Below, one piece after another: positions 6,693-63,899 of a stretch of 64,000 nucleotides of DNA (the first letter of the stretch is position 1; every line of letters starts with the position of its first letter). Location: IMG/VR virus record IMGVR_UViG_3300024229_000651; one strand, given 5' to 3'. The notes beneath the pieces are model-generated. The model made no database searches. It saw nothing but the letters and a program-made list of their open reading frames with translations, and was not told where the DNA came from. The DNA comes from a virus (Duplodnaviria > Caudoviricetes). The position numbers were made by a program, and so were the translations under genes.

Positions 6693-6860
6693 CTACTTAA
6701 TAGATGATTGTACTTTTGGTCCAGGCTTTTTCTTAGGGCCGATCTTTTTAGGCTTCTTAGGTCGTTGCACTACTCTCTGTACATCGTTAGCAATGGACGG
6801 AATTGACGTTGCTACAGCGCCAGCTGTTATTGTTTCACCAATTATATCATGTATTTTCAT
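6693..6860 (-). CDS. Small basic protein with CTS-like leader (not in the ORF track)
   Basis: Translated by hand: MKIHDIIGETITAGAVATSIPSIANDVQRVVQRPKKPKKIGPKKKPGPKVQSSIK*. Late promoter 6 nt upstream of the ATG. Confidence 0.75.
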   Translation of the reverse strand: MKIHDIIGETITAGAVATSIPSIANDVQRVVQRPKKPKKIGPKKKPGPKVQSSIK

Positions 6861-6869
6861 ATGTACTAT

Positions 6870-8189
6870 TTATCTATTGTAGCAACTAAACACGTCTGTG
6901 AACCCGGGGTATATTTCTAACCATGATGAAACATCCTTAATTAGCATAGAATCAATGTGCTCTCGTTTACTAATAAAATTGTTGAAATTATGCTCAGTGA
7001 TTTCAATGTTTTTACTCTGTATATCTTGCCATAATACAGGAGAATCTTTTTTCATCTGTAAAGTTTCTAACTCTGCTAATATCATGTTAATTTTGTCCAT
7101 CACATTGTTTTGCTTGTCAAACATATTTGGATCATTATATAAATGGTCAAACGTTTTATACCCGTTTTTTCTTAAAAATTCAAATGTTCTACATGAACCT
7201 AAAATCATAAACGGTTGTTTCATTATGATAGGTTTATAAATTTTTTCTGTAACGTACACAGTATAGTCTACGAAGGTTTCTGTTATTATGTCGATCTCGC
7301 AGGATTTAAGTTGTTTTATAAAATCTTTATCTTGTGAGATCGACTTCATATGCACTTCTTCTTGTGATCGCCGATCAAGCACTAACGGATAATGATCTTC
7401 TAATGCTTCCAAATAAGATATGCCTTGCAACAACTCCGTTTGTGTTATACGATTTTCTAAATGTTGTTTGCCTAAGTATAGCACAGATTCTGCAAACAGT
7501 TTATTAAAAGGGACTGTAGGTGAACTAATCATACCATCTACATGCAGACCTCGCTGAATTAATCCTCCTAAAAGAAGTGCTCTGTGCGGTCTAGGAGCAT
7601 TATTAAGGCAACTAAACAACAGAGTTTTCTCTACACCATATGGATCAGCATCTTGTACTTTCTGAAACAAGTCTGCCATTGTGTCTTCTTTGTAGTTGTT
7701 AAGAAAAAACACTCTAAAATCATTTTTATATACACTGTTGTTATGTATATCAACAATGTTTTCAGCAGAATTACAATAAAATGTTTTACTTGGGTCTAAT
7801 CCAAAGGTTGTTGTTACCTGTGATATAAAATTAAATATAGAATTATCACAGTGGCCTTCTGCACTATTGTCAAACAATACGATTGGATTATTGCAATCTA
7901 GTATGTATTCGGGTATTATCTGTTTTGCTGCATCAAGTAATCTATTTTCCTCCCACAGTTTATAAATATTATCCGAGCCGATACCATCTAGACTAATAAT
8001 AAACAATACCGGCCTTTTGGACAACTTAGATATTTTATTATAGTGTATCCAGTTATCCGACATAAACTCGCACATACCTAACGCACAGTCTTTGCTAGTT
8101 GCTGGGACATTTTGGAGATCTATAATTTCAGATTTTCCACAGGAGGAAAGGAATGCTCGGAATGGGTTATCGATATCAGCAATAAACAT
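6870..8189 (-). CDS. Glycosyltransferase-like protein
   Basis: FSCLNNAPRPHR and IITET..YVTEKIYKPI..QPF..LG motifs, similar to the GT10-type TEK motif; paralog of 36648..37640. Confidence 0.5.
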   Translation of the reverse strand: MFIADIDNPFRAFLSSCGKSEIIDLQNVPATSKDCALGMCEFMSDNWIHYNKISKLSKRPVLFIISLDGIGSDNIYKLWEENRLLDAAKQIIPEYILDCNNPIVLFDNSAEGHCDNSIFNFISQVTTTFGLDPSKTFYCNSAENIVDIHNNSVYKNDFRVFFLNNYKEDTMADLFQKVQDADPYGVEKTLLFSCLNNAPRPHRALLLGGLIQRGLHVDGMISSPTVPFNKLFAESVLYLGKQHLENRITQTELLQGISYLEALEDHYPLVLDRRSQEEVHMKSISQDKDFIKQLKSCEIDIITETFVDYTVYVTEKIYKPIIMKQPFMILGSCRTFEFLRKNGYKTFDHLYNDPNMFDKQNNVMDKINMILAELETLQMKKDSPVLWQDIQSKNIEITEHNFNNFISKREHIDSMLIKDVSSWLEIYPGFTDVFSCYNR

Positions 8190-8219
8190 GTTTGTTATTT
8201 ACCGGTATAGTAAGTAGTT

Positions 8220-8615: not shown

Positions 8616-8616
8616 A

Positions 8617-9204
8617 CTAGTATTTATCTGCAAACTGGTGATTAGCAGCTGCATGCCTGGCTTCGTCATCTCTAACTGCTTTCACCATATCAAAAAGTTT
8701 AGCATCTTTATCAAGTCCATAATAATCGATAGCTAGTTGAGGTGCATCTACATTCCTAACTTGTCTATTTTCTATCATAGTTAAATATGTCGTATAGCTA
8801 AGTACTGCTTCTTCTTCAAAAAATGCAATCATTTTGTGTGCTGTTCGAGGGAAAAGTACAAACATTACAAAATAAAAATTCCAAAATATAAATTGTGCTA
8901 ATAAAATTAGAAATCTTTCAAATATATTAGGTTTTGCAATTTCTATGAAGAACATTAGATGCATGCGTTCATTCTCTGCTTCTGCAAGCAGTTCGCGAAT
9001 CATTGGGCCGTATCCGGTTTGCAGCTGGCGTAAACTTTTTAAATGTATCCACATGCCTGCAACCATCCCCGGTACGCCAGCAATAGTTTCCAATACTACT
9101 GCCCTATGTCCATAGCGTTTTGCAAAAAAGAGATCAGCAAAAAAACGGAAAAATTTTGTCATAAACATAGCCGTCATGTCCGACAGCTTGTGCTGAAATG
9201 TCAT
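8617..9204 (-). CDS. aox: Alternative oxidase (ubiquinol oxidase)
   Basis: LETIAGVPGMV, EAENERMHL, FEEEAVxSY and VRDDEARH di-iron motifs. Confidence 0.95.
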   Translation of the reverse strand: MTFQHKLSDMTAMFMTKFFRFFADLFFAKRYGHRAVVLETIAGVPGMVAGMWIHLKSLRQLQTGYGPMIRELLAEAENERMHLMFFIEIAKPNIFERFLILLAQFIFWNFYFVMFVLFPRTAHKMIAFFEEEAVLSYTTYLTMIENRQVRNVDAPQLAIDYYGLDKDAKLFDMVKAVRDDEARHAAANHQFADKY

Positions 9205-9216
9205 GGGTTGAAGCCT

Positions 9217-9756: not shown

Positions 9757-9950
9757 TTTTTCTTACCGCCTTTCATATTAGCACACCAGTGATACATTTT
9801 ACCCTTTTCACCACTGTATTTTTTAGCTTTTGCCCGTAAACTACTTACCGAACCTTTGCAACTTGCGCCTGCTTTTTTGACTCTACCTGGTCTGCTCTTG
9901 CCTTTCTTCTTACCGTCAGCAAAGTTTTCTGTAATTTCAACTATTTTCAT
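9753..9950 (-). CDS. Small Lys/Gly-rich basic protein with CTS-like leader
   Basis: MKIVEITENFADGKKKGK...HWCANMKGGKKK; translationally coupled to its neighbours. Confidence 0.75.
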   Translation of the reverse strand: MKIVEITENFADGKKKGKSRPGRVKKAGASCKGSVSSLRAKAKKYSGEKGKMYHWCANMKGGKKK

Positions 9951-15963: not shown

Positions 15964-16009
15964 GTTTATCTCCTGTACGTGTATTTATCACGATACCGAT
16001 TATACAGCC

Positions 16010-16303: not shown

Positions 16304-16396
16304 TTTATATCTCCTAAACTATTTTCATGCTTAATTAAATAAGCTCTGGTTACTGTTATTTATGCAAAAGAAAAGATTTAGTGTTGTTATAGATTT

Positions 16397-23830: not shown

Positions 23831-23858
23831 ATTATAACACCTTAAGGGAGAAAGTCAA
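23831..23858 (-). promoter_or_regulatory. Sigma70-type promoter TTGACT-N16-TATAAT
   Basis: Directly upstream of the primase gene. Confidence 0.6.
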
Positions 23859-24689
23859 CTAATTTCTAAGAAGTATTTTATCAACGGAGCCTGATGTTTT
23901 CACAAACTCTACACGTATCCAGTTAGTATTAATTGTAAAATTAAAAGGATCGACTCCTGAAAAAGCAGTTGTGTAAGGAATAACACTCTGGCCGAAATCA
24001 CCTTGCGGATTAATGTTATACCAATCGCTTTCCTGTGTAGGTGTAGACTCTAACGCACTGCCCTGAATTTGTATTTTACCAACAAACTCGTTAAGATAGA
24101 ACCCAATCGTGTGTCGACTATGTCTGTAATTCTTAGCCTGGTTTCCATACATAGCACTAGTGACAAATTTGTCTTCGGCATCACCTAATGTAACATTACC
24201 TGTTTGTATAAAAGATACACTTGATTGGCTAGGTAACGGATGATATTCTAACGGACTTTTTATTTCAAACTGTGTAATTACACCTTCATTTTGATTAGCA
24301 TAAAGTGCATACTGTGATTGTCCCGAATCTGCGCTTTTTGATATAGCCATTTTGTAAAAGCCCGGTCTTAGATCAGTTAGATCACCTGTGCTTAAATCTA
24401 AACGTACTTCCCCCACAGAATCAGCTACGTGCGTTAATTGTTTGAACATAACTCGAGTATTTGTATTCGGATCTATGACTGTGATATACAATGTTTCAGA
24501 TGAAACGTCTTGTAATACCCTATCTCTATTCCTAATAAAGAAATTCACTGTGTTAGTAAATCCTTTTTGCACGACTATTGATGTTTGATTCATTGGTTTG
24601 TTATCCACCTTGATTGTATCGCTAGAAAGAACCAAGTCAATTGACTGATTTTCCAACAAATATAAAATTTTGGCATTATTATTTGACAT
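23859..24689 (-). CDS. Hypothetical beta-rich protein (candidate baseplate/structural)
   Basis: Late promoter at 24720-24727; Ig-like beta pattern (inference). Confidence 0.55.
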   Translation of the reverse strand: MSNNNAKILYLLENQSIDLVLSSDTIKVDNKPMNQTSIVVQKGFTNTVNFFIRNRDRVLQDVSSETLYITVIDPNTNTRVMFKQLTHVADSVGEVRLDLSTGDLTDLRPGFYKMAISKSADSGQSQYALYANQNEGVITQFEIKSPLEYHPLPSQSSVSFIQTGNVTLGDAEDKFVTSAMYGNQAKNYRHSRHTIGFYLNEFVGKIQIQGSALESTPTQESDWYNINPQGDFGQSVIPYTTAFSGVDPFNFTINTNWIRVEFVKTSGSVDKILLRN

Positions 24690-24748
24690 ATCATGTTCTC
24701 TGTACCATTCTTTGTATAGTATTTATCTCCTGCATATAAATATTACTG

Positions 24749-41927: not shown

Positions 41928-41982
41928 AAACTAAAAATCTCCTAATAGTATTTATCATTTCAGACTATTAATATAGTCGTTA

Positions 41983-43581: not shown

Positions 43582-43589
43582 ATTGCTAT

Positions 43590-44462
43590 TTATGTACTGA
43601 CTGCTTCCAAACTCGTGAAAACTAAGCTCTCCTCGAAAAGATCATACATATGCTTTTGAATATCGACTTCATGCTCTACAAACAGTTGGTGCATAGAATT
43701 TTGCGAAGAGGTTTTGTCAAAATAATCATAGACAATTTTTTTGTAATAATTATCAGCACTAATTACTTTTTCCCATACATCGTCTGGCAATTTTATATCA
43801 AACACACTGGTAATAAAATTAGCATGCTCTAAAATAGAGGGGTGGAAGTCTGAATAGTCTGGGTGGAACTCAGTGATCACTGAATCTCGTTTGTTGTCTA
43901 TATTATTAGACCAAAGAACTTGGTAAAAGCTATCTGTTAAAAAAGGAGTTATGTGCGGTTTATAAAAGTCTACTATAGAGGCAAATCTAGAGGATTTAGT
44001 TATTTCTGTTTCCCATTGGTCGAGAGATTCAAACATGTCGACCATTTGTAAAAATTTAAAATTAGTTTTATACTGCAATAACTGCGAAGATGCATACACA
44101 ACTGTATAATCTCTTAATGCAGAATTACAATCGTTAACGTAATTTTCTACATAGTTGTCATTATATAAACTCTGAGTGTATACGTTGCCGGGCGTGATCC
44201 ATTTGTCTGTTTTGTCAAAGAAACGATCTTCGCGACGAATATTTGTCCACTGCACAATTACAAGGTCACGTTTAGTAAATTTATAGTGTATATCAGCTTG
44301 TTGTAATTTTGTAAAAATAAACTGATTGCCGGCGCCGCCTGTGGCGTAATTATAATATTCTATGTTGGGGTTAGCTGTAGCGAGTATATCGGCCCAAGTA
44401 GGATAACACCATTGAGTGAAACTACAGCCGAATACAAACAGCCGATCAATTTCGGAAAACAT
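43590..44462 (-). CDS. SGNH-hydrolase-like protein
   Basis: GCSFTQW, NYATGGAGN, SDFHPS. Confidence 0.65.
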   Translation of the reverse strand: MFSEIDRLFVFGCSFTQWCYPTWADILATANPNIEYYNYATGGAGNQFIFTKLQQADIHYKFTKRDLVIVQWTNIRREDRFFDKTDKWITPGNVYTQSLYNDNYVENYVNDCNSALRDYTVVYASSQLLQYKTNFKFLQMVDMFESLDQWETEITKSSRFASIVDFYKPHITPFLTDSFYQVLWSNNIDNKRDSVITEFHPDYSDFHPSILEHANFITSVFDIKLPDDVWEKVISADNYYKKIVYDYFDKTSSQNSMHQLFVEHEVDIQKHMYDLFEESLVFTSLEAVST

Positions 44463-44941
44463 TAGCGGCTGTTTCGTAAATAGTCTCTAAGACGGTCTCT
44501 CAAGACACCTGTGATTACTGATTTATCTGTAGTTGTAGGCATAGAACTATGTGCGTCTGGGTCCATTTCTGTAGGTGGTTCACACGGCATTTCTTCTTGC
44601 TCTGGTTCTACTTCTTGCGCTGGTTCTTCTTGCTTAGGTAATGTAATGCCTGCTAGTTTAAGTACATCATGCAGTTCTTGCATACTTTCTGCTCTTGCAC
44701 TCACTGTAACACTAGCTGATCCTTTGCTCTTCGTTTTGGTATAATTAACACTTTCTGTTTCTTTCGGTTCTGTTTCGGATTGTTGATCTGTTGGCATTAC
44801 CATCGGTAATCCTTCTTCTACTGGGTCACAATCACATTCACCTGGAGGACATGTGCAGTCTGCAGATCCGCATTGTGGGCATTTTTCGCCCTCATTGAAC
44901 TCTTGTTCAAAAATATCTAATAAATCACGCATGCTTGCCAT
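44462..44941 (-). CDS. Acidic hypothetical protein with a Cys cluster
   Basis: CPQCGSADCTCPPGECDC; E/P-rich. Confidence 0.65.
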   Translation of the reverse strand: MASMRDLLDIFEQEFNEGEKCPQCGSADCTCPPGECDCDPVEEGLPMVMPTDQQSETEPKETESVNYTKTKSKGSASVTVSARAESMQELHDVLKLAGITLPKQEEPAQEVEPEQEEMPCEPPTEMDPDAHSSMPTTTDKSVITGVLRDRLRDYLRNSR

Positions 44942-44942
44942 C

Positions 44943-45638
44943 TTAGTGCCTCAGTCCTTGATCATGTAAACTGACCATTTTATCGTCTGGGCCGCCTGCT
45001 CCGCCATGTGCAAGTCCAGTAATTGAATCGTGCATTGCGCTCAAATCGTCACCCATTAATTGATCTTTTGTAGGGTATGATTTGAAGTAATCCTCGCCCT
45101 TTTCATCTCTAATTCTTTTTAGCTCTGCAACAAATTTGTCGCTGTAGCCTTCGCCGAATGTACTCAAGTCGTCATCAACGGAATCCTGTTCATCGACATA
45201 ATGTGCCATATCGTCCTTAAGGAGTTCTGCTTCATCCGCATTAACAACACGGTCCTTGTCTCTGCTAACTCGATCTTCTGCCATTTCAGACTCAATACGC
45301 CTAGGATCATTTACACCATAACATAATACACGATCATGTGGTACGTCTAAATTAACAGATAACCATACTTCTAATATACGCTGGTTTACAGGATATTTTA
45401 GGATAACATCTGTACTACATACTTCGCTTGTGAATGTGGAGCCTTTCAGTCTTTGAAATTCCATAGGATTTTCTTGAATAGGTAATCTTTTCCATGGGGT
45501 GGTACTTACCAAATTATATTTTTGTAAGCACGACTCTAGCTTGGACATGTCGTCTGCTGTGCAGTCCTTAGCAAGTTTGATCCGATAACCGTATTCTTTA
45601 CTAAAGGATTCGTTTATAATATCTTTTAGTTCTCTCAT
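44943..45638 (-). CDS. Hypothetical late protein with CTS-like leader
   Basis: MRELKDIINES; late promoter at 45663-45670; GAGGAG SD. Confidence 0.7.
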   Translation of the reverse strand: MRELKDIINESFSKEYGYRIKLAKDCTADDMSKLESCLQKYNLVSTTPWKRLPIQENPMEFQRLKGSTFTSEVCSTDVILKYPVNQRILEVWLSVNLDVPHDRVLCYGVNDPRRIESEMAEDRVSRDKDRVVNADEAELLKDDMAHYVDEQDSVDDDLSTFGEGYSDKFVAELKRIRDEKGEDYFKSYPTKDQLMGDDLSAMHDSITGLAHGGAGGPDDKMVSLHDQGLRH

Positions 45639-45685
45639 AAGTGTAAAACTCCTCGTTACACTTATTTATCATAAATAGTAAAAGT

Positions 45686-46321
45686 ATGTACATTAAGATT
45701 AGACCAGACCAATTCAACCGTATGAGATCGTGGACTGTTCCACTAGAAAATCAGTGTTGCCCTAATATCAAATTGTTAAACAAATTTGATCAGACTGGTT
45801 ACGACTTATGTGAGCTAGAGCAACAATATGCCGCAATAAACACAGACATTGTTACTAAAATGAGATACAAAAACTCTATACGCAAAGATTGGTTAGAGTT
45901 TGACATTTTAGATCGAGGTGCGCACATAAACCATGCAGACTTATACGAGAGAAAAGGATTCGGTGGATACGCATTAGAACAAATAAATCATTGGGCTCCG
46001 TGCTGTCCTATTTTGTACAAACTTTCCAAATTAAAAGGAAAATGGGGGATAGATCTCAGCATAGATTATGTTGATAATCAGGGTAATGTATTTGAATTGT
46101 TTCACTACGAATGGGACGACTTTGAGTTATCGTCTGTACAAGATAAAAAAGAACAGATTGAAGAGATTTTGCTCAACACCGATTGGGATGATGTTGCATT
46201 AAAAAAATTAGCTAGAAAAGACGAATGGAAGAACTTAAATTTCTTTGAGCAAAGTGCTTGGACTACAAAATTTTTGGGTTTGCCGGAAGAGAGATATAAA
46301 CTTAATCCTTGGAATTTATAA
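45686..46321 (+). CDS. Hypothetical protein
   Basis: Single + strand gene; CATAAATA at 45670-45677. Confidence 0.7.
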   Translation: MYIKIRPDQFNRMRSWTVPLENQCCPNIKLLNKFDQTGYDLCELEQQYAAINTDIVTKMRYKNSIRKDWLEFDILDRGAHINHADLYERKGFGGYALEQINHWAPCCPILYKLSKLKGKWGIDLSIDYVDNQGNVFELFHYEWDDFELSSVQDKKEQIEEILLNTDWDDVALKKLARKDEWKNLNFFEQSAWTTKFLGLPEERYKLNPWNL

Positions 46322-46796
46322 TTTTTAGCAATTCGTTCCTGTCTAACGAACCACCAGACCCTGCATCACTAGATTTACCAACATTATTCCTGTCTAACCG
46401 CTCTTTCTTAATCATAAGATCAATTTGTCGCAACTTTGCAGTAATTTTACTATCCCTTGCTTGCAGTGCGGTAGTCAACATCTTACTTGCGCTATCAAAA
46501 ATGCTTCCAGCTTCTCTGTCACCTACATTCATACCTAGATTCATTAGCTGCTGATAACTGTCGACTGCTTGTTGAGCAATATCATCCATCTCATCACTGT
46601 GGTCTTCTAACCCTTTTACACTAGACAGAGCTTTATCTATTTTTTCAGCGTTAGTAAGTGCACGTTGCACTTCTTCGACACTGATAATTTCTGTAGATTC
46701 GACTTCGTCGGGCATATCAAACAATTCGTCATCTGATTCTATAGATGTTTGAGACATTGGCGGTAAATTAAATTCTTCTTCGAGTTTCTTAGTCAT
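46302..46796 (-). CDS. Probable terminase small subunit (T4 gp16-like)
   Basis: Helical 164-aa protein ending LDRNELLKII; near terL; start MTKKLEE lies 5 nt after CATAAATA. Confidence 0.5.
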   Translation of the reverse strand: MTKKLEEEFNLPPMSQTSIESDDELFDMPDEVESTEIISVEEVQRALTNAEKIDKALSSVKGLEDHSDEMDDIAQQAVDSYQQLMNLGMNVGDREAGSIFDSASKMLTTALQARDSKITAKLRQIDLMIKKERLDRNNVGKSSDAGSGGSLDRNELLKIINSKD

Positions 46797-46821
46797 AACA
46801 GTATTTATGATAAGTATTATC

Positions 46822-47496
46822 ATGATAGGGATAATTGCAGGCTACAGGACGGGGTCTACTACACTCATTCACGAGTTAAGTATAACACAGAATCTAACTT
46901 ACGAACGTGAACATACTGGTGAGCTAGACTTTTATACAAACCTATTCAGTTACCCAACGTCTATAAATCAGATATATAAAATAATGCCAACTGATAATAA
47001 TCTTAGTGGGGAGACTAGAGAGTTATTTTATAAACACTGGCTAGACAATAGTTCTAACTTATTTTACACTGTAAGACATGATCTCACTGCTCAGATAAAA
47101 AGTTGGGCATTAGCTAGTATAACACATCGCTTTCACCCGTTTGAATTATCTGAGGTTCCTGAGATTCATATTAGACATCTTGATACTGATTCAATTCATG
47201 TTAGTAGGTATAACAATGCAAACAATACTGAATTTGAGACTATTCAAGAATGTCAATCTCATATAGACAACACATTTACTGAATCATTATTACTTTCTTT
47301 TGGGGGTCAAATTATAAGCACCATTAAGAATCAATACGAAATATATCGAAAGTATAAAGGCACAGTTTGTTGGTTAGAAACTAGAGAAAAAACTAATATT
47401 AAGAATAATAAGAAATATTCAATGGTTTTTTCGTTGCCAGCAGAGTTCGAGTCGTGGCATTGTGGTTCTGTTGGTGAACAACATTTTAAACAGTAA
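46822..47496 (+). CDS. Sulfotransferase-like P-loop protein
   Basis: N-terminal IIAGYRTGSTTL resembles the PAPS-binding RxGST loop; YTVRHD..AQIKSW resembles the 3'-phosphate-binding helix motif. Confidence 0.45.
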   Translation: MIGIIAGYRTGSTTLIHELSITQNLTYEREHTGELDFYTNLFSYPTSINQIYKIMPTDNNLSGETRELFYKHWLDNSSNLFYTVRHDLTAQIKSWALASITHRFHPFELSEVPEIHIRHLDTDSIHVSRYNNANNTEFETIQECQSHIDNTFTESLLLSFGGQIISTIKNQYEIYRKYKGTVCWLETREKTNIKNNKKYSMVFSLPAEFESWHCGSVGEQHFKQ

Positions 47497-47510
47497 ATTT
47501 ACCTGCTGTA

Positions 47511-47978
47511 TTACTTTCTGCGTTTGCGTTTTGGAGTGGTTCGTTTCTTAGGATTATTTCTAAAGATTTGGTCTTCCGTAATTACCTTAAAGTGTATGCC
47601 TTTATTTTTAGCCCACTCCATTGCAGCGGTCCACTTAACTGCATTAACTTGAGTAGCCATTTTGTCACCGGGGCCTTTAGCATTTTCGATTACTGTTTGG
47701 CTTTTGGGCTTAATTTCAATTAGCTCTACTCGAGTTTTGCCATTTTTATCTTCGTATTGTACCATAAAGTCGGGTACGTAATTAGTTATTTTACCTGTAA
47801 ACGGATGTCTATAAGGTATTTTAACATTCTCGCTTGCCCATTTCTTTATGTTAGGATGTTGATCGCAAAAACGCATAAAGGTTGTTTCCCAGCTACTCCG
47901 TGCAAAGGGAGGTTTTGTGCCGGCGTACTTTTCTGGGTTTTGTATTGTATAAATACCTTGCGAATATTTAGAAGCCAT
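47511..47978 (-). CDS. Head completion nuclease (T4 gp4, TnsA-like)
   Basis: RSSWE..FM.FCD, WASE...IPY, YVPDF, LIEIKP, NAVKW.AA. Confidence 0.9.
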   Translation of the reverse strand: MASKYSQGIYTIQNPEKYAGTKPPFARSSWETTFMRFCDQHPNIKKWASENVKIPYRHPFTGKITNYVPDFMVQYEDKNGKTRVELIEIKPKSQTVIENAKGPGDKMATQVNAVKWTAAMEWAKNKGIHFKVITEDQIFRNNPKKRTTPKRKRRK

Positions 47979-47983
47979 TCGTA

Positions 47984-48415
47984 TTATGGCCTTATGATTT
48001 TAGCAACTCTGCTTTTAGAATTATCTTTTAACAATGATAAGCCTACTAAATTGCCTTTAGGCCGAACAGTGTTCAACGCAGAATATGTGTCTGCTGCTAA
48101 TCTGATAGCATCGTCATTTAAGTCAAAATAACTCATAGGATGTACTCCTTGCATCTTTGCGATCTTTATTAATGCTATAGCTAGAGCGTTTGTAGTCAAC
48201 TCACCGAAACCAATATTAGTTAGCCGGGCTTTAACAGCATCTACACGAGTTGCTTCGATGCCTTCCTGGTCTGGATCAAGCATAGATGTTAATATGTCTA
48301 CACTAGCTTCAGGAATAGGAAACGCTACAGTACTGTTTTGTAAAAACTTTACCAGCTTTCCTCGTCGAACAGTGTAACTTACTTCATTTCCAAATGTTTC
48401 GTATAAACTTTGCAT
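47984..48415 (-). CDS. Hypothetical protein (tail/baseplate region)
   Basis: Co-oriented ORF in the structural block. Confidence 0.65.
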   Translation of the reverse strand: MQSLYETFGNEVSYTVRRGKLVKFLQNSTVAFPIPEASVDILTSMLDPDQEGIEATRVDAVKARLTNIGFGELTTNALAIALIKIAKMQGVHPMSYFDLNDDAIRLAADTYSALNTVRPKGNLVGLSLLKDNSKSRVAKIIRP

Positions 48416-48421
48416 AAATTA

Positions 48422-49471
48422 TTAACCCGGATTAAAATTATTCCAAAAATCTTGATTTTGCTCGGCTCTCAACGAGGATGTTTCTTTACCTGTTTCACTT
48501 GGAGCGAGGAAACCAGCAGAATAATTGATTAAGTGTTTATTTTCAGCGGTCGTCTTGCCTGCAACTGATCCTCCTGGAATATCTTCACCTAGATCTTCGT
48601 CGGTGCCAGCTGATGTACGCAGTCTTTCCCAAATTCCCTGACTAAAATTACCCCATCGCTTCATATCATCTTCGGGTATAAAGCTGTTAATGTTTGGATC
48701 AATGCTGAAACTTTCGTAACTGATTTCCATCTGTATTGTTATAGGCTGAGAAGAAGAATAATCTAAACTGTCTACTTTAAAACTTGTAACTATAGGATTA
48801 AACATTGTATACCGCACATAGCGTTGAGCATGATAAACTAGTAAGTCTATATGAGTTAAGAAATTACGTTCTGCGCCTGGTCTAATATTTAACCCGTTAT
48901 TATTTTCGTTCCAAATTTGAGTGAAGCCACTCATTGTATCAGCTGTTGCACTACCTGTAGTTAATTTCTCAGGAACAACATCATATGGACGTATCTTAGG
49001 TATCGATGTTCCGTCAGACTGAGTTTCAAACTTATTCATAGGATTCAAAAACATGTGTTGATACATTCTCATTAGTGTGATAACCCATGCACTGTCTATT
49101 GTGTCATAAACTGTGATACTAATAGGCTTATATTCGATACCGCTTACTGTAATACGTTTTTTATTATACTGATTATGGGTATCTGTTTGCATTTCGAACG
49201 ACGGGAACTCTGCTGTTTTAACTAAACTGCTTAATCCATTTAGAAAATCTTTCGTTGCAGAACCACTCGGTATTGCATCATTAAAATAAAAATTAACAAG
49301 GCCTTGAAACTGCTGTCTTACTAAATTTTGATCAGGATTTAAATGTTTAGCGTTGTTTGCTGTACTTAAATAAGCACCTTGATCGCCGCCAATACCATCT
49401 TCTATCTCAACCGATGTTCCGTTGAACGTTTCAAGTTGCGATTCGTATATTTGTTTTAATAATTTGCGCAT
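48422..49471 (-). CDS. Tail-tube-fold baseplate/tube initiator protein (gp19/gp54-like)
   Basis: VKTAEFPSFE...QYNKKRI..SGIEYKPISITVYD; NPIVTSF..DSLDYSSSQPITIQMEISYE. Confidence 0.7.
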   Translation of the reverse strand: MRKLLKQIYESQLETFNGTSVEIEDGIGGDQGAYLSTANNAKHLNPDQNLVRQQFQGLVNFYFNDAIPSGSATKDFLNGLSSLVKTAEFPSFEMQTDTHNQYNKKRITVSGIEYKPISITVYDTIDSAWVITLMRMYQHMFLNPMNKFETQSDGTSIPKIRPYDVVPEKLTTGSATADTMSGFTQIWNENNNGLNIRPGAERNFLTHIDLLVYHAQRYVRYTMFNPIVTSFKVDSLDYSSSQPITIQMEISYESFSIDPNINSFIPEDDMKRWGNFSQGIWERLRTSAGTDEDLGEDIPGGSVAGKTTAENKHLINYSAGFLAPSETGKETSSLRAEQNQDFWNNFNPG

Positions 49472-49490
49472 ACTATTATTTATCCTTTAT

Positions 49491-49520
49491 AAAAACGAAT
49501 AACCGCCTGGCGGCGGTTAT
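49491..49520 (-). terminator. Intrinsic terminator after the tail tube gene
   Basis: UAACCGCC-GCCA-GGCGGUUA then UUCGUUUUU. Confidence 0.75.
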
Positions 49521-49564
49521 AAGTTATATAGGTGTTCCTAAAAAATACTATAAAATAAAGTATT

Positions 49565-50191
49565 TTATACGCCGTCTGCGCTTGGACCTTCGAATGCGTT
49601 ATCACCAGTACCGGACATATCTAATCCGCCACCTGAGCCAATTGCGCCTGCGCCTGCCTTGTGAATAGCATTGTCGTAACGTATGCTCAATGTAATTTGA
49701 ACTGGTTCGTTAGTTGCGTAATCACTGTCACTGTAATCAACGTTAGTCAAGAAGCAACCTTCTAATTCCCAAAATTCTAATTCATTTGCAGTTGAACCGT
49801 CTAGGATTTCAATTCGCATATCAAACTTGTAGTCTTCGCCCGCTAATGGAGCTGTTTGCTCTAAGTGGTTTAACTGACGCTGCTGTTGTGCACCAACAAT
49901 TCTAGAAACGCTGTTGGTAACATCGTCACGTAGAACAATTTGAATCGCTTCCCAGGCATGCTTGCCTTGTACATATACACGTGAGTTGTAGCTGTGAATT
50001 TCTACTTCTTCATAACTAACTTTAGGTCGTGATACGTTTACAACATTTTGTGTAAATCTTCGCTGCCCTGCTTCGTCATCGCCGCCGAATCCGCTTAACA
50101 TTGTTACACGGAATCTAAACTTTAGTTTAGGCATTAAAATGCCAGCTTCGCCTGCTACTACAGGAACACCAAATTTATCTTTAGTAGCCAT
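49565..50191 (-). CDS. Tail tube protein (T4 gp19-like)
   Basis: RFRV, VSRPKVSYEEVEI, GKHAWEAIQI, WELEGCF, YSDSDY..PVQITLSIRYD. Confidence 0.9.
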   Translation of the reverse strand: MATKDKFGVPVVAGEAGILMPKLKFRFRVTMLSGFGGDDEAGQRRFTQNVVNVSRPKVSYEEVEIHSYNSRVYVQGKHAWEAIQIVLRDDVTNSVSRIVGAQQQRQLNHLEQTAPLAGEDYKFDMRIEILDGSTANELEFWELEGCFLTNVDYSDSDYATNEPVQITLSIRYDNAIHKAGAGAIGSGGGLDMSGTGDNAFEGPSADGV

Positions 50192-50292
50192 TTATGTTAT
50201 CTCCTAATTACTTTTTAAGTCTATAAGACTGTCGTTACTTTTATTTATCAAAACTGGCAGAAATTTGTTAAAAGGCACTTTAATTTGCCAAT

Positions 50293-50316
50293 AAAAAAGG
50301 GCGTTTCCGCCCTTTT
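50293..50316 (-). terminator. Intrinsic terminator after the sheath gene
   Basis: AAAAGGGCG-GAAA-CGCCCUUUUUU. Confidence 0.85.
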
Positions 50317-50333
50317 CTATAGTTCTTATATAA

Positions 50334-53120
50334 TTAAGAACCTGATGAACCCAATGTGTTCTGGACTCTGATTGGAATGTAGATAAACTCAACTGCCTTG
50401 ACTGGCTGAATAGCAATGTCAATGTACAATTCGTTTCTATCGATTCTTGCTGGAGTGTTGTTTGTCGTATCACATACTGTGACAAAGTCAAACAAACCAC
50501 GTTGAATAACAAGATTAGATAACAACCCGTCTACTACGTTCTTAGCTTTTGCTCTAGTCAATGCATCGTTTGGCTCAAACAAGAAAGGCTTAACAACATC
50601 GTCTAGTCTTTCTCTGAGGTATACAATTAAACGTGCAACGTTAACTCTGTCCAACGCACTTGCTGTTGGGTTAAGAGTCTTTTGACCAAATACTGCAAGG
50701 CCTCTTCCTGGGAACTGTGCGATTGGGTTTACTTTATTCAAGTAAAGCGTGTCACGTTGCCCTTCGTTGAGTGTAACTGGAACATATTCGCCGCTATCTG
50801 CGTCAACATATCCTACACTTGTTGCATTTTGTACGATACCACGCTGGAAGCCAGCTGGTGCAAACCAAGGGAATGCAACCTGATCGTTGAATGCAAATGT
50901 GCGTAATGCAACATGACTAGGTGGTACTACAACATTTGTACCGTCTAAGTTAGTTGTCATTGCACTTGGGTAGTAAACAGCCGCATATGGAGAACTTGAT
51001 AGTAAGCCGTCTTCGCCGTTTTCACTAGCATTGTTAGCATTAGTTGCCCACGCTTGAACAGTAGTTGCAGAAGCATCTAGTCTCATTGGCGTATCTGCAA
51101 TAACAAATGCAGTATTACGTCTGTCGCCACTTAATGCAATCATCTCGTCAAGCAATTCTGGATAACCAGGTGCTGTGATCAAGTTAAACGCATTAATTTC
51201 ACTTCTGATTGCATCGTTTTGAGTTATGATTGCTTGCATCTTAGTTTTAACTAAGTTGTGTACAGCCTTTCTCATGCCATGCATCTTACCATCTACTTGG
51301 TTGCCGCTTGCGTCAACCCAAACGTTACCAACAGCTACACCGTTAGCAACATAATCAACTTGCCATTCTTTAACGTTGCCGCCGCTTGCTCGCTTGTTCC
51401 AGCCTAAAATACCTACTGGATACTTCTCTTTAGCAGGAGCATCTGCAGACAAGCTGCCGCCTTTAACTGCACGGAAGTCTTGGTATATAATACCGTCTGC
51501 TGTTACCTGGTCAGTACCGTCTACACCTACCCATGCGCTTGCGCTTGCAGAGTATCTGTAAATTTTAGGGAAGTTGTCCAAGTCGTCGCTGTCAAGCCAT
51601 AACTCTCCACCAGCAAGTGGTGTAGTACCGTCACTTTGCTTACTAGGCTTAGTTGCAGTAACATTTAAATCAGCTGAAACACTCTGCCAACCATTTGTTA
51701 CATGGTTTTCCAACAAGTCAACATTAGCAAGAGCAACACTTGCATCATACCAGTACGTACCGGATGCTAATGTGCCAGCTGGCTTTGTTTTGCTTGCTTT
51801 GTAAGTTAAATCTGCCCAGTTAGTGAACAACACATCATCTGATGCGCCGCCGCTGCCTAAGCCAATACTACTTGGTCCAAATGCAGGGTCTGTGCTTAAA
51901 AGTTTAATATCATAACCTGAACTTGATGTCATAACAATGTTATCACTGTCGCCTTCAGATGCAACAACTTCTGTTACGCCTGCGCCTGATAGTGCACTGT
52001 TAATGTCAAAGATACTGTCGTCTACTGTAGATGCTGCAATTGTGCCGCTTACAGAAGCAGTAAAGTTAACTGGTGTTGTAACGCCTTTGTATACAATAGA
52101 CAACGTCTTAGCTGTAACATCTACTGTACCGTGTGCGCTACCAGTAGCAACTAAACTTGTGCTACCGTCATGCTTTCTAAATTCAATTGTTGCAGTGTCT
52201 TCACCGTGTATAGCGATTACATCGCCGGCAACAACATTTGTAATACCCATGTCGTCATATGCTGCATCACCGCTTGCGTATACTGGGCTTGCTATGTTAG
52301 CGTATGCCTTAGTACTGCTGCTGAATGCTTTAACACGTAAATCCATGCCACTGTTTGGTGTAGTTGTTTGAATAAACACATCACCGTCTACTAGTGAGCT
52401 TGCGCCATCGCTTTGAAGAGTTGGTACTCTCAAGTGAGTTGCAAACTGGAAGTCGCCGCTTGTTGCAGCTGTCCAACTTGTAGAGCCAATTTCGTACCAG
52501 TCATCACTGAACTTTTCGAAGTACTTAATTTGCTCTGATGCATCGCCAGCGGATGTTTGTGCAACGATTGCGTAGTCGCCGTTTAAACCAAAGGACTGCT
52601 TTGGTTCGCCTGTTACTCGAATATCGTTCTTTTCACAAACTTTTGCTGTTTTCTTAACCCATGCGCCAGACGCATACTCTCTAACACCATATCTAGAATC
52701 GTCAATGTCTACCCAATGTGCGCCATCTGCTGTTGCGCCGCTTGGTGATGTAGCTGATGCTTCTAGTTCACCTAAATCGATGTCTGCTCTTAAAATCCAC
52801 GCTCTGTTAGACAAACCCAAGAAACTATGAGCTGCTAATAGACCGTATTCGTTAAGGTCGTAACCGTTAAGTTGAGTGCTTCCGCTTGAATAAAATAATG
52901 GATTACCATAATTTTGTAATAACTCGCGTTGGCTTGTTATTAATTTTACTTGTCCTGTTTCAGCACTAGTAGTAAATGCAGCAGTTCCTACGCCGTCAGG
53001 ACTTGCTTTGTCCTGAGCCGTTGCAATAATGATTAAAGGAACTGTACCTGCACCAGCAGAGGCGTAAAACGACTCGTCTGTTACACTAATACTTACGCCA
53101 GGTGATACTAATTCTGCCAT
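50334..53120 (-). CDS. Tail sheath protein (T4 gp18-like, with large insertions)
   Basis: LVSPGVSI, VVPPS, FPWFAPAG.RG, LYLNKVNPI, FGQKT, RVNVARL, FLFEPND, PVKAVEFIYI. Confidence 0.96.
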   Translation of the reverse strand: MAELVSPGVSISVTDESFYASAGAGTVPLIIIATAQDKASPDGVGTAAFTTSAETGQVKLITSQRELLQNYGNPLFYSSGSTQLNGYDLNEYGLLAAHSFLGLSNRAWILRADIDLGELEASATSPSGATADGAHWVDIDDSRYGVREYASGAWVKKTAKVCEKNDIRVTGEPKQSFGLNGDYAIVAQTSAGDASEQIKYFEKFSDDWYEIGSTSWTAATSGDFQFATHLRVPTLQSDGASSLVDGDVFIQTTTPNSGMDLRVKAFSSSTKAYANIASPVYASGDAAYDDMGITNVVAGDVIAIHGEDTATIEFRKHDGSTSLVATGSAHGTVDVTAKTLSIVYKGVTTPVNFTASVSGTIAASTVDDSIFDINSALSGAGVTEVVASEGDSDNIVMTSSSGYDIKLLSTDPAFGPSSIGLGSGGASDDVLFTNWADLTYKASKTKPAGTLASGTYWYDASVALANVDLLENHVTNGWQSVSADLNVTATKPSKQSDGTTPLAGGELWLDSDDLDNFPKIYRYSASASAWVGVDGTDQVTADGIIYQDFRAVKGGSLSADAPAKEKYPVGILGWNKRASGGNVKEWQVDYVANGVAVGNVWVDASGNQVDGKMHGMRKAVHNLVKTKMQAIITQNDAIRSEINAFNLITAPGYPELLDEMIALSGDRRNTAFVIADTPMRLDASATTVQAWATNANNASENGEDGLLSSSPYAAVYYPSAMTTNLDGTNVVVPPSHVALRTFAFNDQVAFPWFAPAGFQRGIVQNATSVGYVDADSGEYVPVTLNEGQRDTLYLNKVNPIAQFPGRGLAVFGQKTLNPTASALDRVNVARLIVYLRERLDDVVKPFLFEPNDALTRAKAKNVVDGLLSNLVIQRGLFDFVTVCDTTNNTPARIDRNELYIDIAIQPVKAVEFIYIPIRVQNTLGSSGS

Positions 53121-53177: not shown

Positions 53178-53185
53178 TATTTATC
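53178..53185 (-). promoter_or_regulatory. Late promoter GATAAATA for the sheath gene
   Basis: Motif match upstream of the sheath SD. Confidence 0.7.
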
Positions 53186-56279: not shown

Positions 56280-56315
56280 AACACTATTTATCTTATTCTG
56301 CTGTACTTGAAGGGA

Positions 56316-59541: not shown

Positions 59542-59617
59542 TGGTGGAGCTGGAGGGGATCGAACCCACGACCTTCTGGATGCAAACCAGACGCTCTCCC
59601 TACTGAGCTACAGCCCC
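59542..59617 (-). tRNA. tRNA-Ala (UGC), CCA encoded
   Basis: GGGGCUG acceptor, anticodon arm UCUGG-UUUGCAU-CCAGA, GUUCGAUC T-loop; 76 nt. Confidence 0.95.
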
Positions 59618-59625
59618 ATACCTTA

Positions 59626-59838
59626 TTATTTATTCGGATCTCCCCACGGGGTGGACTCTTCGATGGCATCTTGAGCACACTGTATATAGTCTTTGTCTTC
59701 CTCTGTCAACACAGACCAAAACTTGCTGACAGTAAGTGTGTGTTCATAAACTTCTAGTGGGTTTTCTAGATGGTAATCGCTTTCCATCCAGGCTTGCAAT
59801 TGATCCATTCTATCATTAATCTTTTCTTTAAGATTCAA
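59626..59838 (-). CDS. Hypothetical protein
   Basis: TTG start with AAGGA SD immediately after tRNA-Gly. Confidence 0.65.
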   Translation of the reverse strand: MNLKEKINDRMDQLQAWMESDYHLENPLEVYEHTLTVSKFWSVLTEEDKDYIQCAQDAIEESTPWGDPNK

Positions 59839-59854
59839 AACAGTTCCTTAAAGT

Positions 59855-59930
59855 TGGAGCGGGTAACGAGGCTCGAACTCGTGACCTCAACCTTGGCAAG
59901 GTTGCGCTCTACCAACTGAGCTACACCCGC
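59855..59930 (-). tRNA. tRNA-Gly (GCC), CCA encoded
   Basis: GCGGGUG acceptor, CAACC-UUGCCAA-GGUUG anticodon arm; 76 nt. Confidence 0.95.
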
Positions 59931-59936
59931 ATGTCA

Positions 59937-60224
59937 CTATTTATTTCGCTTAACCCACAGATGCCCGTTCTTCTCGGCGTCATGGAATACTGTAGCTGTG
60001 ACAAAGAATGCCCCGACAACTAACAGGTGTCCTCCCACACTGTAGATTCCGTAGTAAATCGTATAGCCTGCCCATGCAGTAAATACTGCTGACCACATTA
60101 CAGACAAATAAAACATCAGAATAAATTGTGTATACGGACTAGGAATATGACGTAATGGGTTGTACTTTAGATTAAAAAAGTAATTATAAAGATCGTAAAT
60201 TGCAAATCCAAGTTTCTTAAACAT
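59937..60224 (-). CDS. Small membrane protein
   Basis: NPLRHIP motif followed by two hydrophobic helices; AGGAG SD. Confidence 0.7.
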   Translation of the reverse strand: MFKKLGFAIYDLYNYFFNLKYNPLRHIPSPYTQFILMFYLSVMWSAVFTAWAGYTIYYGIYSVGGHLLVVGAFFVTATVFHDAEKNGHLWVKRNK

Positions 60225-60377: not shown

Positions 60378-60406
60378 GAACTATTTAAAGTGATAAATAT
60401 AACATT

Positions 60407-61435: not shown

Positions 61436-61438
61436 CAC

Positions 61439-62848
61439 ATGGATTATTGGTACGACGAACAACTAAGAAGATATCTTTTGCAGTTTATGCGAATCTTCGG
61501 AGGCTTTCAGGTTAAGGAAGGCAAGCGAGACGGTGTCGAGTACTATAATAAAGTGCCTGTTAGATATGCCGATATGAATCGAATGGTTGCTCACATACTA
61601 AAGAAGGGCAGCGAGAACATGGTAAACAGTACACCGTTTATATCTTGTAGTATTTCGTCATTACTTATCGCCCGGGATCGAGCGGCTGATCCGTTACTAG
61701 TTGACAAAGTGCAAATTGCAGAAAGACAGTATGACGATGATGCTGGGGAATATGTGGGGCAAGACGGCGAAACTAAATTTCCAGGAAATCTTTATACTAC
61801 AGATAGATACATGCCTGTTCCGTATAATTTAACCATGAACATCGACATATGGAGTGGCAACACTGATCAAAAATTACAATTACTCGAGCAAATATTAATA
61901 CTGTTTAACCCAAGCCTAGTACTTCAATCAAGTACTAACCCGTTAGACTGGACTAGTTTGTTCGAAGTCGAGTTAACAGACATTCAGTGGAGTAATAGAA
62001 GTATGCCAGCTGGTGTCGATGAGACAATCGACATTGCGACTTTAACATTCACTCTACCTATTTGGCTTAATCCGCCTGCGAAAGTTAAACGACAAAAAAT
62101 TATTAACACAATCGTTACGAATATAACAGACACTAGCAGTATCAACGACTTGGGCTATGATGAGGACATTTATGACTTTTTCAGAACCTTAGACAAGCAA
62201 TTTCAATTACATACTATTAGCCCTAACAACTATCGTCTAGAGGTTGTAGGCTCAGAAGCAACATTATATAAAGATAACGGAACAATATTAGCAAATTGGA
62301 ATGATTTATTAGAAGTTTTAAGCCCGCAAGGAAGTTCGGGAACAGCAGATACGCAAAATGTTGACCTGGACGACATACCATTAACGCCTGGCAGCACCAT
62401 TCAATTGAATTTATCTAATAATGTATACGACACAGATCAACAAATAACAGGATCTGTGGTCCGAAACACTATTGACTCAACAAAATTAATATTTACACTT
62501 GACCAAGACACATTACCTGCTAATACACTGACTAATTTAACAAGAATTGTCGACCCAGTTGCTAGTTTTCCAGGTGACGGTAACTTAGCTGCTGTAGCAA
62601 CTGGACAAAGATACTTGTTAACTAACGAAATACAAGGAAATGTCTGGGGTATTACTGCATATACCAATGACATTATCGAATATAACGGTGCTGCATGGGA
62701 TGTAGTATTTGACTCTCGTATGCAATTAGATAATACGCACTATATAGAAAACACATACACAAACAAACAATACAAATGGGAAGATGCACAGTGGACGAGC
62801 TCGCACGAGGGAATTTACAACCCGGGATACTGGATCCTAAATGTATAA
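61439..62848 (+). CDS. Tail sheath stabiliser/terminator (T4 gp15-like) with C-terminal extension
   Basis: YWYDEQLRRYLLQF, VPVRY, MPVPYNL, LEQILILFNPS, IDIATLTF..PIWLNPPAKV. Confidence 0.88.
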   Translation: MDYWYDEQLRRYLLQFMRIFGGFQVKEGKRDGVEYYNKVPVRYADMNRMVAHILKKGSENMVNSTPFISCSISSLLIARDRAADPLLVDKVQIAERQYDDDAGEYVGQDGETKFPGNLYTTDRYMPVPYNLTMNIDIWSGNTDQKLQLLEQILILFNPSLVLQSSTNPLDWTSLFEVELTDIQWSNRSMPAGVDETIDIATLTFTLPIWLNPPAKVKRQKIINTIVTNITDTSSINDLGYDEDIYDFFRTLDKQFQLHTISPNNYRLEVVGSEATLYKDNGTILANWNDLLEVLSPQGSSGTADTQNVDLDDIPLTPGSTIQLNLSNNVYDTDQQITGSVVRNTIDSTKLIFTLDQDTLPANTLTNLTRIVDPVASFPGDGNLAAVATGQRYLLTNEIQGNVWGITAYTNDIIEYNGAAWDVVFDSRMQLDNTHYIENTYTNKQYKWEDAQWTSSHEGIYNPGYWILNV

Positions 62849-63267
62849 AAGCCTGCGGTGCAGTGTTTCTGTCGCTCGACACCGGGCGTTGCCTATTACA
62901 ACTACGCAATAGTAAAAAGAAACATAGACATACCTGGGGATTTTTTGGAGGTATCATCGATTCGGGTGAATCTCCATACGAGTGTCTCCAGCGTGAGTTA
63001 ACTGAAGAGATGGGTTTTGTCCCAGAATTGCATAAACTAAATCCACTCGATACATATCAAAGCAAAGACAAGAGATTTATGTACTATAGTTTTGCATACA
63101 TAGTAGATAAAGAGTTTATGCCAACATTAAACAACGAGAGTGCTGGGTATGCTTGGGTAAACATAGGTGTATGGCCCAAACCGTTACACGAAGGATGTAA
63201 AGCAACACTAGAAAGGAATTCTGGGACTACTAAACTACACACTATACTGTCTATTAATAACCAATAA
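62845..63267 (+). CDS. NUDIX hydrolase (start codon ambiguous)
   Basis: Nudix box GGIIDSGESPYECLQRELTEEMG; see the finding on the start anomaly. Confidence 0.88.
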   Translation: MKACGAVFLSLDTGRCLLQLRNSKKKHRHTWGFFGGIIDSGESPYECLQRELTEEMGFVPELHKLNPLDTYQSKDKRFMYYSFAYIVDKEFMPTLNNESAGYAWVNIGVWPKPLHEGCKATLERNSGTTKLHTILSINNQ

Positions 63268-63275
63268 ATAGTAGC

Positions 63276-63899
63276 ATGAAAGAAATAATTGATTTCACTG
63301 CTGCTCGTATAGAGGCAGAGTTAAACAAATTTCAAAAAAACAAGCGTATACCAACTGTATTTATAGATGGTACTTACACCATTGCTGATGTAGAAAGCGT
63401 ATTTGATAAATTATCAAAAAAACATCAGCGCATTGCAATAAAGTTCATAGACCATTTCAAAGAAAATATTGCAGAGAGTTCTGAGCAACTATCGGAGAAC
63501 TTTTTTAAAGATTACCAATCGTTTATACAAGATCAGCGGACTAGAGATGATGGTTGGGCATTTCCAGCAGTTATGTCTAGGTTTAGAGACAATATTAATC
63601 CGGTTAGGGCAGTAATATACGATGCTAGAGAAATAGTGAGATCGTATTCTAGTGAAAATCCGCGACACATTTGGATGCATGCTATACTTACAGAAAATGA
63701 ATTTCATAACAGGCTGTTAGATGCGATTATAACTGACCGAAAGCGAGTAGATAAGATTTTAAATGCATACTTACCGTTGTATAATGGAGCAGATTTGCCC
63801 GAGCCATTACAAATGATACATCTTCGAAGATTACGAACAGATTTATTAGAATATGCAAACACTATTATAGAATTAAAAAACTGGGAACCGGAAGAATAA
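63276..63899 (+). CDS. Hypothetical protein
   Basis: AATAAATA 5 nt before the ATG. Confidence 0.7.
   Translation: MKEIIDFTAARIEAELNKFQKNKRIPTVFIDGTYTIADVESVFDKLSKKHQRIAIKFIDHFKENIAESSEQLSENFFKDYQSFIQDQRTRDDGWAFPAVMSRFRDNINPVRAVIYDAREIVRSYSSENPRHIWMHAILTENEFHNRLLDAIITDRKRVDKILNAYLPLYNGADLPEPLQMIHLRRLRTDLLEYANTIIELKNWEPEE

Follow-up and report, generated by a model that had tools for sequence, protein, structure and literature searches.

Late-promoter boxes set against start codons in a marine jumbo phage point to leaderless mRNAs

Introduction

How is a phage gene translated when a promoter-like box occupies the place where its Shine–Dalgarno (SD) sequence would usually be found? This question is raised by a stretch of 64,000 nt, hereafter termed the window, from a virus of the class Caudoviricetes (IMG/VR virus record IMGVR_UViG_3300024229_000651), in which the heptamer ATAAATA stands directly before the ATG of terL, the large terminase gene, and of several other genes. 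An initial annotation of the window had proposed that such boxes are late promoters of the T4 type that produce leaderless mRNAs, and that low-copy assembly factors are expressed in this way while abundant proteins such as sheath and tube use longer leaders with an SD sequence. Here we show that the distance between box and ATG is fixed to a single base far more often than expected, that the genes concerned lack an SD sequence, and that the arrangement is conserved gene by gene in relatives. The alternatives are weighed where the evidence on each is given.

Results

The spacing between box and start codon

The window corresponds to bases 185549-249548 of a 339,794-bp virus record with a CheckV completeness of 91% and a GC content of 39%. 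A total of 369 genes were called in this genome with a simple coding-potential model, the gene and start calls being home-made. SD strength is given as the duplex energy with the anti-SD sequence, and the gap is the number of nucleotides between the end of the ATAAATA box and the ATG.

The whole genome carries 121 ATAAATA boxes. An ATG follows at gap 5 after 19 of the 121 and at gap 6 after eight (8/121), where 2.3 are expected per bin (Poisson P=5.7e-12 for gap 5 over the 339,794 bp). Five scrambled 7-mers examined genome-wide as controls gave flat distance profiles, and 17/19 of the gap-5 ATGs open a reading frame of at least 100 aa. The word itself is not over-represented in the window, either as ATAAATA (31 occurrences versus 26.8 expected) or as TATAAATA (five versus 7.7 expected). 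It is the position of the box, not its frequency, that is special. The base preceding the box is mostly G, such that ATAAATA usually occurs as GATAAATA in this genome, and the base preceding the ATG is mostly T. Among one-mismatch variants of the box, small gap-5 peaks were seen genome-wide for ATAAGTA, ATAACTA, and ATATATA only.

The genome-wide histogram of motif-to-start distances, which the initial annotation had suggested as a check, is anything but flat. When 120 of the boxes were scored for their distance to the next gene start on the same strand, the distribution proved to be bimodal, with 25 sites at 5-9 nt, a single one at 10-14 nt, and 46 at 15-100 nt. For each of the distant boxes, an SD sequence lies between box and ATG. 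The starts near a box have none, with a duplex energy of ~0 kcal/mol versus a genome median of -5.6, and for most of these SD-less, motif-linked genes no better alternative start is present. Elsewhere the phage uses SD sequences normally, with AGGA and GGAG peaking 6-8 nt before starts. Box-driven genes do fall into two classes, with either no leader and no SD sequence, or a leader of at least 12 nt with one. Because a leader of ~5-10 nt would be too long for a 5'-terminal AUG and too short to accommodate an SD sequence, the nearly empty zone between the two classes supports a transcript start ~6 nt after the box.

Every site that the initial annotation had listed was recovered (Table 1). This holds for the seven SD-less genes with a box at gap 5 (8615, 43581, 46796, 46822, 49471, 56279, and 63276, that of 46822 being the variant GATAAGTA), for the three at gap 6 (6860, 8189 with the variant GGTAAATA, and 24749), and for 60407 at gap 7 and 45686 at gap 8. 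The longer leaders that it had described for sheath, tube, and gene 16303 are likewise present, with the box 50-57 nt upstream and AGGAG before the ATG.

The box as a probable late promoter of the T4 type

In T4, the late-promoter box TATAAATA spans -13 to -6 and is read by gp55 together with gp33 and the gp45 clamp (PMC2988020). Because of this geometry, a gap of 5 nt places +1 on the A of the ATG. The phage studied here encodes a late sigma factor of the gp55 family, a protein of 293 aa (G000:C1:289208-290023(-)) that matches phrog_12791 (E=2e-94) and phrog_234 (E=7.4e-24), as well as the gp55 of the SAR11 phage HTVC008M (4e-13, tblastn). Moreover, 72/120 of the scored boxes have a gene start on their own strand no more than 100 nt downstream. 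The genes served are in many cases structural, among them those for sheath, tube, portal, TerL, adaptor, and wedge. By geometry, sigma factor, and placement, the initial annotation was thus probably right to see in the box a T4-type late promoter whose +1 can fall on the A of AUG.

Leadered promoters offer a further indication of the start site. After their boxes, T occupies position 5 in 52% of cases and A position 6 in 54%, compared to 37% and 33% after boxes whose next same-strand gene start is over 100 nt away. This preference resembles a pyrimidine-purine start signature and makes position 6 after the box the likely start. Apart from the preceding G, no conserved sequence was found upstream of the box. 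Searches for the T4 partner proteins were negative: for gp45, phrog_223 had no match at E<=1 and tblastn with the T4 and HTVC008M proteins returned nothing below E=1, and for gp33 the same was true of tblastn with the Syn9 and HTVC008M proteins, both gp45 and gp33 being short, fast-evolving proteins. A similar combination has been reported for the jumbo phages CBB and GAP32, where ATAAATA was proposed as a late motif before structural genes and a gp55-like sigma factor occurs with no detectable gp33 or gp45 (PMC5259590).

From these elements a mechanism can be proposed. ATAAATA would serve as a -10-type late promoter for host RNA polymerase carrying the phage gp55-family sigma factor. At about one-third of late promoters (~25/72 of the gene-proximal ones), the initiating nucleotide would fall on the A of the ATG (gap 5) or within 1-3 nt of it (gaps 6-8). 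The genes at gaps 5-8 would then give rise to leaderless or near-leaderless mRNAs without an SD sequence, on whose 5'-terminal AUG ribosomes would initiate, while the remaining late promoters, situated 15-100 nt upstream, would yield leaders with a normal SD sequence.

Start codons, neighboring genes, and two alternative explanations

Dependence on AUG is a classical hallmark of leaderless initiation. Among ORFs (open reading frames) of at least 80 codons pooled from this genome, 80 related loci, and HTVC008M, the start codons found at gap 5 comprise 159 ATG, one GTG, and one TTG, whereas GTG or TTG starts 37/213 of SD-led genes. In addition, leaderless-class messages show slightly weaker folding over their first 40 nt (-2.3 versus -3.6 kcal/mol, P=0.02).

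The surroundings of the 27 genes at gaps 5-8 bear on an alternative, in which the box is a real late promoter and the genes abutting it are mainly translated from read-through mRNAs by termination-reinitiation coupling, the spacing merely reflecting gene packing. Some features agree with such coupling. About 19/27 have a co-directional upstream neighbor, often only 1-36 nt away, and the TAA of the terL box doubles as the stop codon of the preceding gene (43590-44462), the two genes being 8 nt apart. However, 8/27 are divergent from their upstream neighbor and three stand directly behind strong terminators composed of a hairpin and T-run. One of these three is 49471, where an intrinsic terminator (hairpin of -14.6 kcal/mol) lies directly upstream with its T-run 7 nt before the box. 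Because of such positions, read-through transcripts cannot serve these genes. The TAA within the box is also out of frame with a gap-5 ATG and forms the upstream stop only in some cases. For example, the box of 8615 lies inside the 3' end of an upstream gene that ends in a separate TAG (8617-8619). Finally, coupling requires neither single-base spacing to a 7-nt word nor starts confined to ATG, and it leaves the empty 10-14 nt zone unexplained. We consider it an unlikely account of the arrangement as a whole.

A second alternative is that AUAAAUA at gap 5 functions at the RNA level as a translation signal that needs no SD sequence, such as an A/U-rich S1 or standby site, and is not a promoter. 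A/U-rich translation enhancers are known in bacteria, and the box does sit in the usual place of an SD sequence, 5-6 nt before the ATG. Nevertheless, the word, again preceded by G, is found 15-100 nt upstream of 46 genes that have an SD sequence of their own, and it precedes two tRNA genes (Table 1), where it works with no ATG at a fixed distance. The box has no complementarity to the anti-SD sequence, the divergent and terminator-flanked genes need a promoter and show no other, and a strict requirement for ATG is unexpected of leadered initiation. An RNA signal of this kind is therefore very unlikely.

Conservation in marine relatives

Relatives were collected by a TerL scan of IMG/VR, which returned 541 matches, of which 80 loci with 65-72% identity (1.12 Mb) were kept. 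Among distinct boxes in these loci, ATG stands at gap 5 after 137/411 and at gap 6 after 20/411. The box of terL itself is at gap 5 in 47 loci and at gap 6 in 15 (62/80), and CTAAATA is at gap 5 in seven more. The DNA upstream of terL has otherwise diverged, so that the box is the part that persists.

When each distinct upstream context is counted once, terL is of the leaderless type in 42/49 contexts, g46796 in 39/43, and the gp13-like gene in 6/6. Genes that are SD-led in every context include tube (32/32), sheath (26/26), UvsX (35/35), SSB (35/35), and the virion protein gene 45638 (39/39). Virion gene 41927 switches mode, being leaderless in 29 contexts and SD-led in 19 (48 in total), as it is here, and the few contexts of the 45686 ortholog vary in spacing (gap 8 in three, gap 5 in two, gap 6 in one). 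The predicted mode of expression is thus a property of the individual gene, preserved over a large clade of marine relatives. Genes for packaging, neck, and baseplate functions tend toward the predicted leaderless mode, and those for sheath, tube, and replication are SD-led.

Nine related contigs (L062, L064, L067, L070, L082, L084, L085, L090, and L091) carry a different arrangement, in which the box is followed by 5 nt, then ATGGAGCAATTAC, and then the terL ATG. This sequence can be read either as a 13-nt leader with GGAG or as a leaderless mini-ORF of six codons (MEQLHA) with its end 5 nt beyond the terL ATG, and appears to represent a natural halfway form between leaderless and SD-led expression.

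The layout also occurs in cultured phages. In HTVC008M, 13/64 [A/C]TAAATA boxes are at gap 5, and 12/13 of these sites match independently annotated starts. The genes served encode the tape measure, a gp2-like DNA end protector, head closure, tube cap, wedge, tail completion, and CsgF proteins, a cyclase, and a regulator. The SAR11 phage Mosig has nine sites against zero in the control, and the OM43 phage Melnitz has five against zero, a weak signal. Elsewhere among cultured phages, ATAAATA-N5-ATG is not clearly enriched in T4 (two sites), CBB (two), Phosso (zero), Atu_ph07 (five versus two in the control), or PA5oct (eight versus four in the control). TAAATA-N5-ATG is not in excess in the cyanophages Syn9, S-PM2, and P-SSM2, and two cyanophage-like single-cell viruses had no sites above control.

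These comparisons bear on whether the pattern could be an artefact, arising from chance co-occurrence or from mis-called starts with the real, SD-bearing starts lying downstream. A few genes do have in-frame downstream ATGs with a moderate SD sequence, at +27 codons for 56279 (dG -7.3) and at +26 codons for 149608 (dG -5.4). Against an artefact stand the Poisson probability in this genome, the replication of the pattern in 80 related loci and three cultured phages, the agreement with annotated starts in HTVC008M, and the alignments of TerL homologs, which begin at residue 1. An artefact is highly improbable, and the scrambled-word control, the counts in relatives, and the HTVC008M annotation effectively refute it.

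The start position of terL may be less secure in PA5oct. There, the annotated start (L009 3930-3990, ATG 3956) is situated within a hairpin that resembles a terminator and is accompanied by a T-run. A downstream ATG at ~3984 seems more plausible, which suggests a possible error in the deposited start.

Genes outside the late, low-copy class

The initial annotation had envisaged two tiers, with leaderless expression reserved for low-copy late assembly factors. The existence of two classes conserved by gene is upheld, as is the membership of the sheath, tube, and capsid genes in the SD-led class (in the case of the major capsid gene, as judged from this genome) and of the TerL, adaptor, wedge, and tube-like paralog genes in the class predicted to be leaderless. 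The division by abundance fares less well, given that the low-copy portal gene is SD-led and that 41927 changes class among relatives. Low-copy leaderless versus high-copy SD-led expression is a trend and not a clean rule. The further suggestion of the initial annotation, that leaderless expression could keep translation working on damaged or stress ribosomes, found no support.

The restriction to late assembly factors does not hold. Non-structural genes, such as one for a radical SAM protein in this phage and those for CsgF, a cyclase, and a regulator in HTVC008M, belong to the leaderless class. Furthermore, promoters of the sigma70 type (TTGAC-N16-18-TANNNT) also abut start codons, with 12/96 forming a peak at gap 5-6 before ATGs. 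Their -10 boxes end 5-6 nt before real ORFs at window position 23824 and at genome positions 98406, 105658, 109254, 123080, and 133292, which suggests that early or middle genes may also be leaderless. Because sigma70-type promoters share this placement, leaderless expression would be a general option in the phage and not purely a late device.

Sites in the window and their surroundings

The window holds a structural block, consisting of TerL, sheath, tube, a tube-like paralog, a gp13-like adaptor, and a gp15-like stabilizer, together with replication genes for two helicases, UvsX, and SSB. The major capsid and portal genes lie outside it. The identification of g46796 as the small terminase, which the initial annotation had put forward, was not confirmed, and a Pfam search of the unannotated leaderless-class proteins gave nothing useful.

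Table 1. Late-promoter boxes and related promoter elements in the window. Positions are those of the window; the gap is counted from the end of the box to the ATG or, for tRNAs, to the first tRNA base.
Element	Position	Strand	Gap (nt)	Gene served	Remarks
ATAAATA	43587..43593	-	5	terL, ATG 43581	ORF 41983-43581
ATAAATA	46802..46808	-	5	g46796, 164 aa (phrog_16202)	divergent from + gene starting 46807/46822
GATAAGTA (variant)	46809..46816	+	5	ATG 46822	in-frame ATG also at 46807
ATAAATA	49477..49483	-	5	349-aa tail-tube-like paralog, ATG 49471	
ATAAATA	56285..56291	-	5	gp13-like head-tail adaptor Ad2 (255 aa), ATG 56279	
ATAAATA	63264..63270	+	5	207-aa protein, ATG 63276	
ATAAATA	8621..8627	-	5	131-aa protein, ATG 8615	
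ATAAATA	6867..6873	-	6	55-aa protein, ATG 6860	
GTAAATA (variant, GGTAAATA)	8196..8202	-	6	439-aa protein, ATG 8189	
ATAAATA (TATAAATA)	24736..24742	+	6	123-aa protein, ATG 24749	
ATAAATA	60393..60399	+	7	342-aa virion protein, ATG 60407	adjoins gp15-like sheath stabilizer; gp14 of the initial annotation
ATAAATA	45671..45677	+	8	211-aa protein, ATG 45686	divergent from 45638
Leadered late promoter	53178..53184	-	57	tail sheath, ATG 53120	AGGAG before ATG
Leadered late promoter	50242..50248	-	50	tail tube, ATG 50191	AGGAG
Leadered late promoter	16357..16363	-	53	80-aa gene 16303	AGGAG
Leadered late promoter	41949..41955	-	21	virion protein 41927	AGGAG
Leadered late promoter	45663..45669	-	24	virion protein 45638	GAGGAG
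Leadered late promoter	15982..15988	-	18	gene 15963	AGGAG; among the shortest leaders still with SD
Sigma70-type promoter (TTGACT, 17 nt, TATAAT)	23831..23859	-	6	329-aa Toprim-like protein, ATG 23824	gap counted from end of -10 box
ATAAATA	59938..59944	-	7	tRNA-Gly(GCC), 59855-59930	
ATAAATA	59627..59633	-	9	tRNA-Ala(UGC), 59542-59617	

Several neighborhoods deserve mention. At window positions 24720-24742, two ATAAATA boxes on opposite strands stand back to back, 9 nt apart, the minus-strand box (24720-24726) serving gene 24689 (-, gap 30). A second divergent pair of this kind is present at 45663-45677. The primary transcripts of tRNA-Gly(GCC) and tRNA-Ala(UGC) would carry a 5' leader of only ~2-4 nt, and a small ORF lies between these two genes (window 59542-59944, -).

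Relationship of the phage to known phages

The closest cultured relative by TerL is the Pseudomonas jumbo phage PA5oct (55.6% aa identity), followed by Phosso, Atu_ph07, XaC1, CBB, and Serratia BF. When 50,697 phage records were searched by megablast with a 4-kb query, no near-identical phage was returned. The segment at window positions 41000-50500 is contained in 24 seawater metatranscriptome runs from 2014-2025, in 12 of them with at least half of the sampled words. RNA-derived marine libraries commonly contain the phage or its very close kin.

Discussion

Taken together, these observations make it probable that a gp55-type polymerase starts transcription on or next to the AUG of the SD-less genes, and that ribosomes initiate on this 5'-terminal codon. 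Several points weigh against this interpretation. The start position is deduced from sequence, and the T/A preference at positions 5 and 6 in leadered promoters is modest. Because no gp33 or gp45 homolog was detected, the full T4 mechanism should not be assumed. The sigma factor has 293 aa versus 185 aa in T4, so the distance to the start site could differ by a base or two. The frequency of GTG and TTG among SD-led genes rests on home-made start calls, and many genes of the leaderless type sit in co-directional strings where read-through mRNAs also exist.

The absence of an SD sequence has a possible regulatory consequence. Cistrons without one would yield no protein from read-through transcripts and would depend on their own late promoter for expression, which fits the precedent of T4 genes e, soc, 49, and I-TevI considered below. 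More tentatively, the SD-less, promoter-fused genes might constitute a conserved regulon gated by promoter choice, whose members would be untranslatable on early or middle read-through transcripts and become translatable once gp55-polymerase starts on the AUG. Such a timing or dose lock, for example on the large terminase, might be shared by the marine jumbo-phage clade and the SAR11/OM43 myophages, and might even be tuned by bS21.

The ribosomal protein bS21 came under consideration in its own right. A homolog is encoded outside the window at G000:C1:145680-146078 (-), just downstream of a ClpX-like gene. It matches PF01165 (E=1.7e-12), is about twice the normal length, and has a TTG start. 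As an explanation of the layout, bS21 was rejected on present data, because it is encoded by HTVC008M but also by PA5oct, Atu_ph07, and Phosso, the last three of which lack the layout.

If transcript mapping confirms these predictions, a second use of T4-type late promoters, their single-base fusion to start codons, would be established in phages abundant in the ocean. The finding would explain why searches for late promoters in pelagimyophages failed (PMC7029224), and it would improve the annotation of start codons and promoters in hundreds of uncultured marine phage genomes. It would also imply that leaderless mRNAs are translated in the hosts of these phages, and in SAR11, with an efficiency sufficient for virion production, and it would provide a simple rule for the timing or dose of low-copy proteins such as terminase relative to sheath, tube, and capsid. 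These predictions would be testable in cultured systems, namely HTVC008M or Mosig on Pelagibacter HTCC1062.

Comparison with known systems

We found no description of this layout in literature searches covering leaderless mRNAs with late promoters, jumbo phages, cyanophages, or SAR11 phages including HTVC008M. The closest mechanistic counterpart is T4, which shares an 8-bp A/T box without a -35 element before late and structural genes, a gp55-family sigma factor, and a geometry with +1 six bases after the box. In contrast, T4 late mRNAs have SD leaders and T4 shows no enrichment of box-N5-ATG, and the box of the present phage mostly begins with G. A particular parallel is provided by T4 genes e, soc, 49, and I-TevI, where the late transcript, made from a late promoter at the translation start, can be translated but long early read-through transcripts remain silent (PMC3014915). 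A hairpin hides the SD sequence in these long T4 transcripts, whereas the equivalent proposed here would be the lack of any SD sequence.

Leaderless transcription on a larger scale has been described for the Thermus phage phiYS40, a large myovirus whose middle and late genes are mostly expressed from leaderless transcripts and which is reported to shift IF2 and IF3 levels (Sevostyanova et al. 2007, as summarized in PMC3594737). The two phages are alike in placing a promoter directly against the start codon of later genes. They differ in that the phiYS40 promoters are of the host sigma-A type, in a host from a phylum with predominantly leaderless mRNAs, whereas those described here are of the gp55 type in a phage of a marine bacterium. 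Leaderless-type promoters also form a minority in the present phage (~25/72 of those near genes), the rest being SD-led, unlike the predominance indicated for phiYS40.

Among the Rak2-like and other jumbo phages, CBB, GAP32, and PA5oct belong to the same supergroup by TerL, and CBB and GAP32 share the ATAAATA motif and a gp55-like sigma factor. Nevertheless, CBB, PA5oct, Atu_ph07, and Phosso differ in having no excess of ATAAATA-N5-ATG.

The same layout is instead found in HTVC008M, Mosig, and Melnitz, which are cultured T4-like myophages of the Kyanoviridae. Their genomes are smaller (141-147 kb), they belong to a different family, and their TerL proteins are not the closest to that of the phage studied here. 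A survey of pelagimyophages reported that late-promoter prediction failed in those genomes (PMC7029224). All three nevertheless carry [A/C]TAAATA-N5-ATG, and HTVC008M also encodes bS21 and an annotated gp55.

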